Positions 18,009 to 62,300 of a stretch of DNA of 64,000 nucleotides are shown here, piece by piece. The notes beneath the pieces are model-generated. The model made no database searches. It worked only from the letters and a program-made list of their open reading frames with translations, and had not been told where the DNA came from. This stretch comes from Octopus vulgaris (Eukaryota). Position 1 is the first letter of the stretch; each line of letters opens with the position of its first letter. The translations under genes and the position numbers were made by a program. The stretch lies in contig OX597815.1 of assembly GCA_951406725.2 (NCBI GenBank), positions 135,098,001-135,162,000 of the forward strand, read 5' to 3'.

Positions 18009-18231
18009 TTATCATTTATCTTTCACTTGTTTCAGTCATTAGACTGTGGCTATGTTGGGGCACTGCCTTGAAGAATTTTTAGCCAAATGAATTGACCCTT
18101 GTACTTTTTTTTAAGCCTGGTACTTATTCAATTGTTCTCTTTTGCTGAACTGCTAAGTTATAGGGACATAAACACACAAGCACCAGTTGTCAAGCAGTGG
18201 TGGTGGGTGACAAACACAGACAAAAAGACAA

Positions 18232-18262
<31 letters not shown>

Positions 18263-18428
18263 CACACACAATGGGCTTCTTTCAGCTTCAGTCAACCAAA
18301 TCCACTCACAAGGTTTTGGTTGGCCCGAGGCTATAGTAAAAGACACTTGCCTAAGGTACCATGCAATGGGACTGAATCCAGAACCAAGTGGTTGGGAAGC
18401 AAGCTTTTTACTACACAGCCATGCCTGC
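18009..18428 (-). mobile_element. SINE family S1
   Basis: Full-length reverse copy of 61685-62100. Confidence 0.9.
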
Positions 18429-18754: not shown

Positions 18755-19116
18755 GGTATGGCTGTGTCATAAGAAGCTTGCTTCCCAACCACATGGTTCT
18801 AGGTTCAGTCCCACTGTAGCACCTTGGGCAAGTGTCTTTTAATAAAGCCTCAGGCCAACCTTGTGAGTGGATCTGGCTGATGGAAATTGAAAGGAGCCCA
18901 TGTCTTTGTATCTGTGTTTGTCACCCCATCACTGCTTGACAACAGGTGCTGGTGTGTTTATGTCCCTGTAACTTAGTGGTGTGGCAAAAGTGACCAATTT
19001 GAATAAGCACTAAGCTTTAAAAAAAAATAAGTCCTGGGGTTGATTTGCTTGACTAAAACTCTTCGAGATGGTGCTCCAGCATGGCCGCAGTCAAATGACT
19101 GAAACAAGTAAAAGAG
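18755..19116 (+). mobile_element. SINE family S1
   Basis: ggtatggctgtg...ggtgctccagcatggccgcagtcaaatgactgaaacaagtaaaaga. Confidence 0.9.
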
Positions 19117-19231
19117 TAAATCTAAGCAGATTTGGATGCAAATATTTTGGTTGCTGTAACATATGTCACAGAATAAATTCTGCCATTTGTGATGACAGTG
19201 TGTTGAACACACTTGGCTCATTGATGCATGT

Positions 19232-29045: not shown

Positions 29046-29460
29046 GAACAAATATCTACATTTAAACAGAACACAGGTGCATACTTAAAGAAAACCAGAG
29101 TTCCACCTTTTTTTTTTAATTTCTAGTCTTTTTGAATCAGGAATGAAACTTGTAGGTAAATATAAACATTAGCAATGTTTTTATTTTCTCATTATAGTTT
29201 ACATTTCTTCAATATCAAGAGTTGTTCTGCTACATATTTTCAAACAAAGGCAGTCATGTCACCGTGTTAATCATCTATGGGTAAACTCTGATGATCCAGT
29301 TAAGTACATTCAATTAATATGTAGCTAATGGCATATTAACATGCAACATTTCAGATTGTAACTTTTGTTTGTAAATTTCGATTGAGCAAACCTATGATCA
29401 AATGTGCTGTAACCAGGAGGATATCTTTTAAGGGTATTCAGAACTACATTGTCCCATATA

Positions 29461-29872
29461 CTCTTTTACTTGTTTCAGTCATTTGACTGCGGCCATGCTG
29501 GAGCACCGCCTTTAGTCAAGCAAATCGACCCCAGGACTTATCCTTTGGATGCCTAGTACTTATTCTATCGGTCTCTTTTGCCGAACCGCTAAGTTACGGG
29601 GATGTAAACACACCAGCATCGGTTGTCAAGAGATGTTGGGGGCACAAACACAGACACATAAACATATACACACACACACACATACATATACATATATACA
29701 TATATACGATGGGCTTCTTTCAGTTTCCATCTACCAAATCCACTCACAAGGCTTTGGTCGAACCGAGGCTATAGTAGAAGACACTTGCCCAAGGAGCCAC
29801 ACAGTGGGAATGAATCCGGAACCATGTGGTTGGTAAGCAAGCTACTTACCACACAGCCACTCCTGCACCTAT
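29461..29872 (-). mobile_element. SINE family S1, full length
   Basis: Near-identical reverse complement of 61685-62100. Confidence 0.92.
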
Positions 29873-48930: not shown

Positions 48931-49443
48931 ATGAAATGGTTATGGGTGGAATGCAAAGTACAGTACCTTCAGTAGCTGCCTTCTACTATAGTCTTGAATT
49001 GACCCATCCCTTGTGAACTGGAAGGCAGAAACTGTGGAAGGTCACTCATTATTGACATCTAGTACACTTTCGTACCAATGACCATTTTCTGAATATCCCT
49101 CATGATCTTTCTTCCTAGCAAACATGTACCTACCCTTTCTTTCTCCTAATTCCCTTCTACCTTTACTGTCCCTCTCCTGTTACACACTGCTGTTACTTTC
49201 TATCTCTTTTCTCTCTAATACTGTCTAGCTCATTTCCATACTATCACCCCCACCCCAGTGCCTCTGTTTCTGCATCAAACCTTCATTTCTTTCTTTCAAG
49301 AGGACAGGACAGTCAAAACTAGAGTTCTCTCAACATGATGTTGTCACTGCTCATATGCCATAGTATGTATATGTGTGTATGCATTTAAATATATATATAA
49401 CACACACACACACAAATATATACATACACACACACACACATAT

Positions 49444-49847
49444 ATGATGGGCTTCTTCCAGTTTCCATCTACCAAATCTACTCATAAGGGTTTGGTCAGC
49501 CCAAAGCTATAGTAGAAGACATTTGCACAAGGTGCCACGTAGTGCGACTGAATCCAGAACCATGTGGTTGGGAAGCAAGCTTCTTATTTCCTTATTGCCC
49601 ACAGGGGGCTAAACACAGAGGGGACAAACAAGGACAGACAAAGGGATCGAGTCAATTACATCAACCCCAGTGCATAACTGGTGCTTAATTTATCGACTCC
49701 GAAAGGACGAAAGGTTAAGTCGACCTCGGTGGAATTTGAACTCAGAATGTAAAGACAGATGAAATACTGCTAAGCATTTCGTCCGGCACGCTAATGTTTC
49801 TGCAAGCTGGCCACCTTGGGAGCAAGCTTCTTACCACACAACCACAT
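49444..49847 (-). mobile_element. SINE S3 (49587-49817) nested in a partial SINE S1
   Basis: TSD ggga(a)gcaagcttctta on both sides. Confidence 0.85.
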
Positions 49848-57365: not shown

Positions 57366-57680
57366 AGGTGCAGGAGTGGCTGTGTTGTAAGTAGCTTGCT
57401 TACAAACCACATGGTTGCAGATTCAGTAGATGGAAACTGAAAGAAGCGCGTCATTTGTGTATGTGTGTGTTTATGTGTCTATGTTTGTCTCCCTACCATC
57501 GCTTGACAACTGATGTTGGTGTGTTTACATCCCGTAATTTAGCGGTTTGGCAAAAGAGACCGATAGAATAAGTATTAGGTTTTCAACGAATAAGTCTTGG
57601 GATTGATTTGTTCGACTAAAGGCAGTGCTCCAGTATGGCCGCAGTCAGATGACTGAAACAAATAAAAGAATAAAAGAATA
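57366..57680 (+). mobile_element. SINE family S1 with internal deletion
   Basis: ggtgcaggagtggctgtg head and taaaagaa tail. Confidence 0.85.
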
Positions 57681-59010: not shown

Positions 59011-61457
59011 CCAGATCAAATTAGCAGAAAAAGAATTAAAAATACAAGACTATATTATTGACTGTGTTCTTCCTTTTTGGAACAGTAGGACTGTGATCTG
59101 AGTAAAATTTGTTAGTTATTGCTAGCAAGTCAAAGAAGTGGGCAGATGTTCCCTCATTGGGAAGTGACCAAAATAGAAATACAACCCTAACACTGTACAG
59201 TATATATTTCCCTTCTTCAACATTCTGTATGTTGCATTGTACTAGAGTCAATAGAAATAAATACCATTAATAAACTGGGTCAATTCAATTGAATATACAC
59301 CTTCTCTTTAAGAAAAAAATTGTTTTGTCTAGTCAAAAGAAATCAATATTATAATAAACATTACACCACTACTGGGTTGAAGACTAGAAATAATCAATCT
59401 AATATCATTCATGGCTGCCATTAGTGCATTACATCTGAATTCTTGTCCAACTATTACATTCTTTCCTTTTGAAATTCATTTTGTTTAACCTTCAACCCGA
59501 GATTCACTGAACTGAACTGTTATTATTTCTTCAATTAATACGACTAATTGTCCACTTTTAACACTTTAATATCTCTATTAATATTCTATATTCACTGGCA
59601 CTTTCAAGATCACAGCTTGTGGCAACACCAGGTTGATGACTACTTCTAAATATAGCAACATGAATTGTAAAAATTTCATGCTAATGAATTAACCGTTTCA
59701 CAGTTTGCAATTGGCAGCAGTGGTAGGCAGCACCATTTAACAAATTGTAGTACCAAACACAACAATTAATGTGATATACTTTTCATTGTGTGTTAACCAT
59801 TTTACAAAATATAGCTTCACACATTACATTGCATTTTTGCTTCCCTATCACCATATTTATAGTCTGCATTTTCTACCTTGTTATCTTCGGTTTATCCGTT
59901 CTGTAATTGGTGGTTAAAACTGATGGACGCTAAAGGTAAAAACTTGCAGATGTACGAGTGCAAAATTAAAATGGTTAACTATAGTTTAAATATGCTCCAA
60001 ACACATCACTGTGTATTCCTTTTGTAGACATTTAATTCTACAAGCATCAATTCACCTAGTTGTTAAGAAAAGATTCCAGAACTTTCTGGAAATGTTAACA
60101 AGGAATCACTGATACCTTAACCAATATCACTTTTCCTTTCAGACATAATTCCATGAAGCCATAAAACATCCAAATCATTAATTTTCATGAGTACCTTGCA
60201 ACATTGATTTTCACACTCGTAATACTGGGAAGAAATCTGTTCACTGATAGCTTGGTTTCAGATACCAGGTACATAGTCATTGAGAAATTTTATATAATTT
60301 GGTCCCACAGTTACTTCATTGTCTACCTCATGAGTGTCCAAAATAACATCATTTTGTGCTTAGGTGTCTAACAAAGTTACTTTCAATGATCAACTAATTT
60401 CATTTAAGATAAGTATTTTTTCTTCTAGATATGAAATGCAATGTTTCAACCAGATGACAAGGATAAGTTTTTCACCGCTACAGCAAATTCTTACCTCGGT
60501 TGTCTTAAGGAATACATTTCTGCACATTATGGATTTTAAATTTCCACATTAGAGAGGATTAAATCCCAAATGCAGAAGACTATAGTTTATTTTCCAGATG
60601 TCAGATGCAATTTGCCTCCAGACACATAACTGCTTTTTCTACAGCACACACACAAACATACATACAGGTATGTATGTATGTATACACACACACATATGAA
60701 GGATTAGCTATGCCTTTGGGAAATCATCTAGGAGAGATATGGAGTGTAAATTCTTGTGTGTGCAGTTTTATGTAATCTCAGGAATTTCTGCATATGGTGA
60801 CAGTTAACTATGTACACATATGGGGAGCACATACACTTTATATGATTCTAAACATACACTTATCCTTCTACCTAAGTAGAGAGGATTGATATCACTTTCT
60901 AATTTTTTTTTCCCTCTCCACCTCTCAGGCTGCTTGTGTGCGATAAGGTTCTCATGAGGGCATTTACTTTTTACTCTCAGTTACCAAAATTACTAAAAGT
61001 AAATCTTCTGCAAAACCATTAAAGTATTGGTAGTGTTGCATCTCTGATGGAAAGTGATTTACTAACAAAAAACTTAAAACAACATAACATTTTCAGATAA
61101 ATGTGAATATGATGAAATCATATAAAATCTACCTAATAAACATATATTTAGTCTCACAGTGAAAACATTACGTACAAGTTACAGACTCTTCGGTAGATAA
61201 GAATGTGAGGGATCTGCTGATGTGTTTCATCTTCTTAAAACTTGCACCATATAAATGATATTGTACTATATTAATAGTATGAGTGGCTAATTTGCAATTT
61301 TACAACCTAAAGGCAGAAATATATACATCACTAAAGTGAACAACAGCACTAATTAGCACTAGCATTGCTAGAAATAAGAGTCAAAACAACTCAATAGTCA
61401 CAAAAACCACTATCTTAATGAGCTGACAAAGGAGACAAGCCCCCTACAGTCACAGAT

Positions 61458-61523
61458 AGAGCTATATCACTGATGATTTTGCATTCTGATGTTTAACGCA
61501 TCCTAAAGCTCATCAGTAGCTCT
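61458..61523 (-). ncRNA. Type I hammerhead ribozyme fold (G12A)
   Basis: AGAGCTA-CTGATGA-GC tttag GATG cgttaaa CATC agaat GC-aAA-ATCA tcag TGAT-A|TAGCTCT: 7-bp stem I, 4-bp stem III and an AUA site. Confidence 0.8.
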
Positions 61524-61684
61524 CACCGCACCTAGGGTTAAACTCATCTCGCCTTGTCAGCTTATAAGATCTCTGTTGAAATCGTAAGCTGATTTTGTAA
61601 ACAGTAGTGTGAGAATTATAAATAATGTGGGTGGCTAATTTGCAATTTTACAACCTAAGGGTAGAAATATATACGTCATATATA

Positions 61685-62100
61685 GGCGCAGGAGTGGCTG
61701 TGTGGTAAGTAGCCTGTCTACCAACCACATGGTTCCGGGTTCAGTCCCACTGTGTGGCACCTTGGGCAAGTGTCTTCTACTATAGCCTCGGGCCGACCAA
61801 TGCCTTGTGAGTGGATTTGGTAGACGGAAACTGAAAGAAGCCCGTCGTATATATGTATATATATATATATGTATGCGTGTGTGTGTTTGTGTGTCTGTGT
61901 TTGTCCCCATAGCATTGCTTGACAACAGATGCTGGTGTGTTTGTGTCCCCGTCACTTAGCGGTTCGGCAAAAGAGACCGATAGAATAAGTACTGGGCTTA
62001 CAATAGAATAAGTTCCGGGGTCGAGTTGCTCGATTAAAGGCGGTGCTCCAGCATGGCCGCAGTCAAATGACTGAAACAAGTAAAAGAGTAAAAGAGTAAA
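61685..62100 (+). mobile_element. Young full-length tRNA-derived SINE S1
   Basis: A-box-like tggctgtgtgg, B-box-like ggttcagtccc, CORE-like ccttgggcaagt and a (taaaagag)n tail. Confidence 0.92.
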
Positions 62101-62255
62101 GAGAGTCACTAAAGTGAACAAGGGCACTAATCAGCACACAAAGTCATTGGTTATCTAGCTCTGTGACCAAAGGGGGCTTGTCTTCCTTGACAGCTCATTA
62201 AGGTAGTGCTTTTTGTGGCTATGGAGTTGTTTTGACTTTTATTTCTAGCAATGCT

Positions 62256-62300
<45 letters not shown>

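Follow-up and report, generated by a model that had tools for sequence, protein, structure and literature searches.

What kind of element carries a hammerhead motif inside a 348-nt repeat that runs into an inverted piece of itself, and which machinery placed it in the genome of Octopus vulgaris? We addressed these questions within the 64-kb stretch of DNA that holds the locus (the window, to which all coordinates refer) and among related copies across the 2.8-Gb host genome. Our reading, held at a probability of roughly 0.85, is that the element is a neutrally decaying copy of a non-coding hammerhead family, likely a non-autonomous retrozyme, and that the RT/GIY-YIG protein of a Penelope-like element likely copied it into AT-rich DNA by reverse transcription. 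It would be a new family of a known kind, the non-LTR retrozymes, likely Penelope-mobilised.

Anatomy of the locus and its hammerhead

Comparison of the window with itself recovers the 348-nt period that a preliminary description had read from the sequence, as a direct repeat of 61269-61330 at 61617-61678. That description had also placed the end of a second unit at the equivalent of 61359, followed by an inversion, and this is what is seen: the piece at 62106-62137 equals 61328-61359, and 61358-61456 recurs in inverted orientation at 62160-62258 with 88% identity. The assigned features are as follows, with u1 of the unit at 61630.

61283..61630, minus: one full 348-nt unit of a non-coding dispersed family (direct repeat and genome matches)
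61458..61523, minus: type I hammerhead (descriptor match and helix covariation)
61523-61517/61464-61458, minus: hammerhead stem I, AGAGCUA/UAGCUCU
61516-61510, minus: hammerhead CUGAUGA
61509-61481, minus: hammerhead stem II, interrupted
61480, minus: hammerhead G12 position, A here (AAAA replaces GAAA)
61477-61474/61469-61466, minus: hammerhead stem III, AUCA/UGAU
61465, minus: hammerhead position 17, A here (AUA triplet) and C in the family; predicted cleavage 61465/61464
61413..61569, minus: rod hairpin extending stem I (folding energy, and motifs at 61413-61446 and 61533-61569)
61269..61319, minus: optional tail of ~45 nt between site A (about 61320, u311) and site B (about 61274, u357), from end mapping
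61631..61678, minus: upstream partial unit, u301-348 (repeat comparison)
61679..62104, plus: repeat of 426 nt that we take to be a SINE, inserted later in the partial unit and present in further copies within the window
62105..62137, minus: upstream partial unit, u272-303, the 5' start of the direct arm
62130..62258, plus: inverted arm, about u150-272 (repeat comparison)
62257..62298, unstranded: (TA)n microsatellite bordering the inverted arm on its outer side

Read in the hammerhead sense, the locus begins with the (TA)n, which is likely the insertion target, and continues through the inverted arm (u150-272), a direct arm (u272-348, split by the SINE) and the full unit into ~10 nt of the next unit; end mapping assigns its 3' end to type B. 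The inverted arm carries the 3' half of a second hammerhead, in which the AUC triplet is kept. Inspection of the locus revealed neither a poly(A) tail nor a target-site duplication. There is no frame of 90 aa inside the 348-nt unit, and no RT + GIY-YIG frame was found in the window or abutting the family copies examined. The SINE is flanked by a 4-nt duplication (61675-61678 / 62105-62108), and its copies elsewhere in the window, at 29459-29872, 18012-18428, 18759-19120, 57462-57680 and 49400-49586, are 72-90% identical to it; its insertion point in this copy is the A site of the retrozyme. Like the microsatellites, the SINE is octopus-like in appearance. The region has a GC content of 0.36. 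A pyrimidine run with a terminal AG at 60905-60950 resembles a splice acceptor, so the element may lie in an intron, and a 4230-nt contig of another organism (label F) matches the flank 60905-61263 and diverges at the element edge (61263), a possible empty site.

The hammerhead itself stands as first read. Minus 61523-61458 is the sole descriptor match in the window, on one polarity only, and ten block-shuffled windows gave 0-2 weaker matches each, none combining a stem I of at least 7 with a stem III of at least 4. The rod proposed from the paired motifs at 61413-61446 and 61533-61569 is likewise borne out: the 348-nt unit folds at -101.4 kcal/mol (z -4.4, with 0/100 shuffles that low), the rod at 61411-61560 folds at -60.7 kcal/mol (z -5.9), and of 12 natural copies, 11 have a more stable rod region on the hammerhead strand than on the other (z -1.2 to -8.4). 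Rfam hammerhead models matched neither the window (E<=1) nor four loci whose cores look intact (E<=10). The family has the type I order of CUGANGA, GAAA and NUH with three helices, from which the studied copy departs by G12A. Across 30 sequences picked for near-intact cores, 87% of helix cells are paired, against 25-38% in slid controls, and 11 of 25 pairs show compensatory change; these changes lie in stems I and II, while stem III varies on one side only. Judged from its sequence, the family is a true type I hammerhead ribozyme, and its self-cleavage is predicted.

An old, dispersed and decaying family

Of 1687 candidates from a DNA search of the genome, the 40 that were scored yielded 65 matches, most of them with 78-88% identity and spread over many contigs. 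Pooling all searches gave 206 loci, 140 of them distinct with a good match and 66 left out as duplicates or for want of a 40-bit match; best matches were taken first and some queries included the B end, a sampling that favours full-length copies and B ends. One 23-mer occurs exactly 396 times in the genome (control 0), a count that suggests a superfamily of a few thousand segments. It includes sister families of ~330-350 nt, one of them thinly sampled, with the same layout and other stems and loops; those with the same ends and a different stem II, loop III and cleavage triplet are represented by L175/L176, L177, L179, L187, L189, L198, L202-L226, L253 and L254. Contigs related to the family are present in four sequencing runs (labels A, C, D and F). 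Outside CpG sites, the copies diverge from the column majority by a median of 0.10 (0.081 in the studied copy): the family is old, dispersed and ~10% diverged.

The G12 missing from the studied copy survives in paralogues, as the preliminary description had asked of them: 37 of 52 exact core matches genome-wide retain it. The C11.1-G12 dinucleotide, counted by hand, reads CG in 27, CA in 12 (the studied copy included), TG in 10 and TA in 3 (control 0), a symmetric split which argues that G12 is lost by CpG decay, and the G12A of the studied copy is interpreted in the same way. The two arms of one locus often differ in their G12 state, in the few loci where both can be compared, and we rejected a shared loss through a defective template. 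Among 76 other segments, 67 have C at position 17, and the locus's own inverted arm retains the AUC triplet, so the AUA of the studied copy is derived, even though one sister family does use an AUA triplet. The earlier statement that GAAA to AAAA is the only core defect consequently holds for the core nucleotides and fails beyond them, as the triplet is derived and the copy has also lost two stem II pairs and its loop III palindrome. Since AUA is also derived, restoring G12 alone would make a poor cleavage test. C replaces U4 in 26 of 76 segments, nearly all of them from the other subfamily.

Core columns are conserved at 0.90 compared with 0.89 elsewhere in the unit (CpG, 0.73 versus 0.74), and the full core is present in 11 of 77 segments. 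A core that is conserved no better than the rest of the unit indicates that inserted copies decay neutrally and, together with the small number of full cores, that selection acted on source RNAs and not on inserted copies. The studied copy is very likely inactive, and the family looks extinct.

Insertion ends and the case for a Penelope-like machinery

The 140 loci comprise 68 solo copies, 30 partial tandems, 27 copies with an inverted arm and 15 with both; inverted arms, 42 in total, are on the 5' side in every case. Most copies are 5'-truncated and have a common 3' end, and in the 45 partial tandems a unit continues head-to-tail into the next at 348 nt. Two fixed 3' ends, sites A and B, lie about 45 nt apart: direct 3' ends fall at B in 81 loci, at A in 39 and elsewhere in 20, and the outer ends of inverted arms at B in 24, at A in 10 and elsewhere in 8. 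Where both ends of a locus are at A or B, 21 of 29 loci use one of each, compared with an expected 43% (p 0.0015); eight break this rule, and L024 was counted as BB although its outer end is A. A microsatellite follows 40/54 A ends and 67/107 B ends (107/161 together), compared with 332/2800 flank windows (12%), a comparison in which the short TA run that closes site A has to be borne in mind.

These features form a recognisable signature. EN+ Penelope-like elements and their non-autonomous derivatives are described (PMC8557442; PMC11167929) as showing 5' truncation, partial tandems, an inverted 5' arm, microsatellite or AT-rich targets, a hammerhead upstream of the 3' end, and an optional tail at one end that is tied to two RT start sites. 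The octopus family differs from them, as far as these accounts go, in having no coding frame and a tail of about 45 nt rather than 30-40, and the autonomous families sampled in the genome do not match it in sequence. The contrast that the preliminary description drew between this element and Penelope-like elements is therefore withdrawn, as the family bears their insertion signature.

An internal positive control for end structure comes from the RT+GIY-YIG elements of the genome itself. Their 781-aa frames are intact, they carry a minimal hammerhead, and they terminate in (TA)n, some of them with a 36-nt tail (present in 5/30 loci). One young Penelope-like family (L127-L134 and L139; for example C16:20834500-20841500) has the intact 781-aa RT+GIY-YIG frame, a minimal hammerhead with a U3-A8 core variant ~75 nt before the 3' end, and the optional 36-nt tail; its cysteine linker presumably resembles that of Neptune elements. 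A second family (L071 and L135) has a hammerhead with C or U at position 4. Its tail ends in a motif like the retrozyme family's B end, too short to score, at a similar hammerhead-to-end spacing, and it is a possible partner clade of the retrozyme. Unrelated short hammerhead-like repeats lie beside microsatellites at L071 (minus, near 690), L075 (near 44), L076, L079/L128, L089, L131, L132 and L193, and the genome seems rich in them. In a DNA search for an autonomous partner, five family copies compared with 45 Penelope-like loci gave no match beyond TA repeats. A coding fragment at L180 was set aside as a partner, since other repeats lie between it and the copy.

Might the unit instead be the pseudo-LTR of 5'-truncated copies of an old autonomous Penelope-like element, and not an independent unit? 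Hammerheads are located in pLTRs (PMC4209133), retrozymes and pLTRs are related in frogs (10.64898/2026.07.22.740005), and the prevalence of 5'-truncated copies with a common 3' end would fit. An autonomous tail, however, should lead towards a coding frame, whereas the 45 partial tandems lead from unit into unit; protein fragments occur near just 4 of 116 loci, hundreds of bases away, and none abuts a copy. We regard this origin as improbable.

Mobilisation by a LINE is suggested by the joint at the studied locus. The outer end of the inverted arm (u272) adjoins the start of the direct arm (u271-272), and the arms share a 7/8-nt microhomology at 62130-62137, so that the twin-priming-like geometry proposed at the outset is present. 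In L1 twin priming the inverted arm adjoins the start of the direct arm, and the studied locus is like it in RNA coordinates and in its microhomology. Abutting arms are also found at L005 and L035. Unlike L1 insertions, however, the family brings neither a poly(A) nor a simple-repeat tail and no duplication was seen, and the geometry is a minority pattern, present in 3 of the 10 arms whose ends are internal (2 of 9 with the studied locus set aside), which makes the studied copy atypical. Moreover, two fixed ends with an optional tail are described as common and unique to Penelope-like elements in the account given by PMC11167929. A LINE is thus a very improbable agent; the abutting geometry may hint at a real minor pathway, the alternative being later deletion.

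With a direct arm of 433 nt and the cleavage site lying within both arms, we infer a multimer or a ligated circle as the template, in line with the in vitro insertion of hammerhead mutants (PMC11167929). There is no pile-up of 5' ends at the cleavage site (2/182 starts at u167-170). Separately, 43/182 truncation points fall at u180-220, within the rod's 3' arm, a cluster that would suit stalled reverse transcription and to which query bias may contribute. No locus with two complete units was found among 116 loci, where the longest direct run is 594 nt, or among four further loci; those with two hammerheads (L060, L122 and L253) are decayed, and four candidate regions held no young tandem array.

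A cDNA longer than one unit, together with a viroid-sized unit and a rod fold on the hammerhead strand, would also be expected of an endogenised viroid-like circular RNA that replicates from RNA to RNA. Against such an origin, which we hold to be scarcely credible, the hammerhead occurs in a single polarity, the rod covers less than half of the unit, and the copies have retrotransposon ends and decay neutrally.

Under Penelope-like mobilisation, the preferred reading, a source locus would be transcribed as a multimer (or a circle). Cutting would likely be by a double hammerhead, in which two units pair through the palindromic stem III/loop III, and a lone unit would be off, with CUGAUGA on stem III. 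A Penelope-like protein would then cut both target strands and prime a cDNA from each of them, in most cases starting one at A and the other at B. At the studied locus the bottom strand would have been primed at B and extended for 433 nt, more than one unit, through the cleavage site, and the other strand primed at internal u272, the two cDNAs being joined by microhomology; the copy would have drifted after insertion.

Predicted cleavage of the unit and its place among known ribozymes

The preliminary description had judged stem III stable enough for monomeric cleavage, and folding points the other way. Its four pairs are all A-U rich and the hairpin alone comes to +0.4 kcal/mol. To adopt the active fold as a monomer would cost 3.5-16 kcal/mol over the minimum in 12/12 natural segments, and the minimum-energy fold usually pairs the CUGAUGA strand with stem III. 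Stem III and its loop are self-complementary over 10-12 nt in the main family, in two forms (16/77 and 12/77), and likewise in three sister families, every one seen, despite their different loops. The resulting self-duplex is worth -11 to -15.5 kcal/mol in 9/12 natural segments (-7.4 in the studied copy), and by a rough estimate the double hammerhead is within 1.3 kcal/mol of the minimum in 8/12 (+4.3 in the studied copy). From this modelling, we consider that cleavage in the family would rather probably depend on a dimer. It is the weakest step of the scheme, given a folding model that omits tertiary contacts and Mg2+, the long stem III, and the monomer cleavage of mussel retrozymes.

Efficient cutting of the monomer, which would yield unit-length RNAs for circularisation and leave Penelope-like mobilisation as it is, draws on the same stems. 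Stem III has four pairs, 97% paired over the 30 sequences, where 1-2 bp is usual in animals (PMC4209133), stem II has 5+5 pairs, and mussel and coral retrozymes, the mussel one of similar size, cut as monomers (PMC7229834). Set against the unfavourable hairpin, the cost of the active monomer fold and the self-complementarity retained by differing loops, monomer cutting is conceivable but doubtful. Equally tentative is a joint reading in which a cephalopod-type retrozyme superfamily would have a built-in switch, the UGAU/AUCA complementarity of stem III locking the catalytic strand in a lone unit and the 10-12-nt palindrome opening it when two units meet, combined with Penelope-like priming of the second strand at an internal site, L1-style, besides the two fixed sites.

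In its dimer features the family resembles the dimer-cleaving type I hammerheads of newts, axolotl and Penelope-like elements (PMC4209133, PMC7229834), whose palindromic stem III/loop III can also pair between copies, and differs from those described there in its 10-12-nt palindrome and in a stem of 4 bp as opposed to 1-2 bp. Among the traits of non-LTR retrozymes, non-coding GC-poor units of 150-450 nt with a single type I hammerhead each and a head-to-tail arrangement are found here, the latter as the partial tandems. Compared with the metazoan families in the portions of PMC7229834 and 10.64898/2026.07.22.740005 on which we draw, the octopus family, known from genomic DNA alone, has a similar non-coding unit (348 nt as against ~350-390 nt in mussel), a single type I hammerhead per unit, low GC, a self-paired fold, many dispersed monomers and coexisting Penelope-like elements. 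It departs from them in its 4-bp stem III, palindromic loop and long interrupted stem II, and in lacking an array of two complete units among the loci examined and looking extinct. With two complete units absent from every sampled locus, it falls outside the 'active retrozyme' of 10.64898/2026.07.22.740005, as worded in the part drawn on here. Our literature search found no report of cephalopod retrozymes or of tails in retrozymes, and the supplements of PMC7229834 and 10.64898/2026.07.22.740005 could list such families.

The studied copy itself is a fossil. Particular to the octopus family are the predicted dimer switch and the internal variant of twin priming, and the two fixed ends with their one-of-each rule amount to a testable model of two-strand priming. 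In the parts of the sources cited here, Penelope-like mobilisation of retrozymes has so far been argued from co-occurrence and phylogeny and not from insertion anatomy; this family gives structural support to the Penelope-like mobilisation of animal retrozymes.
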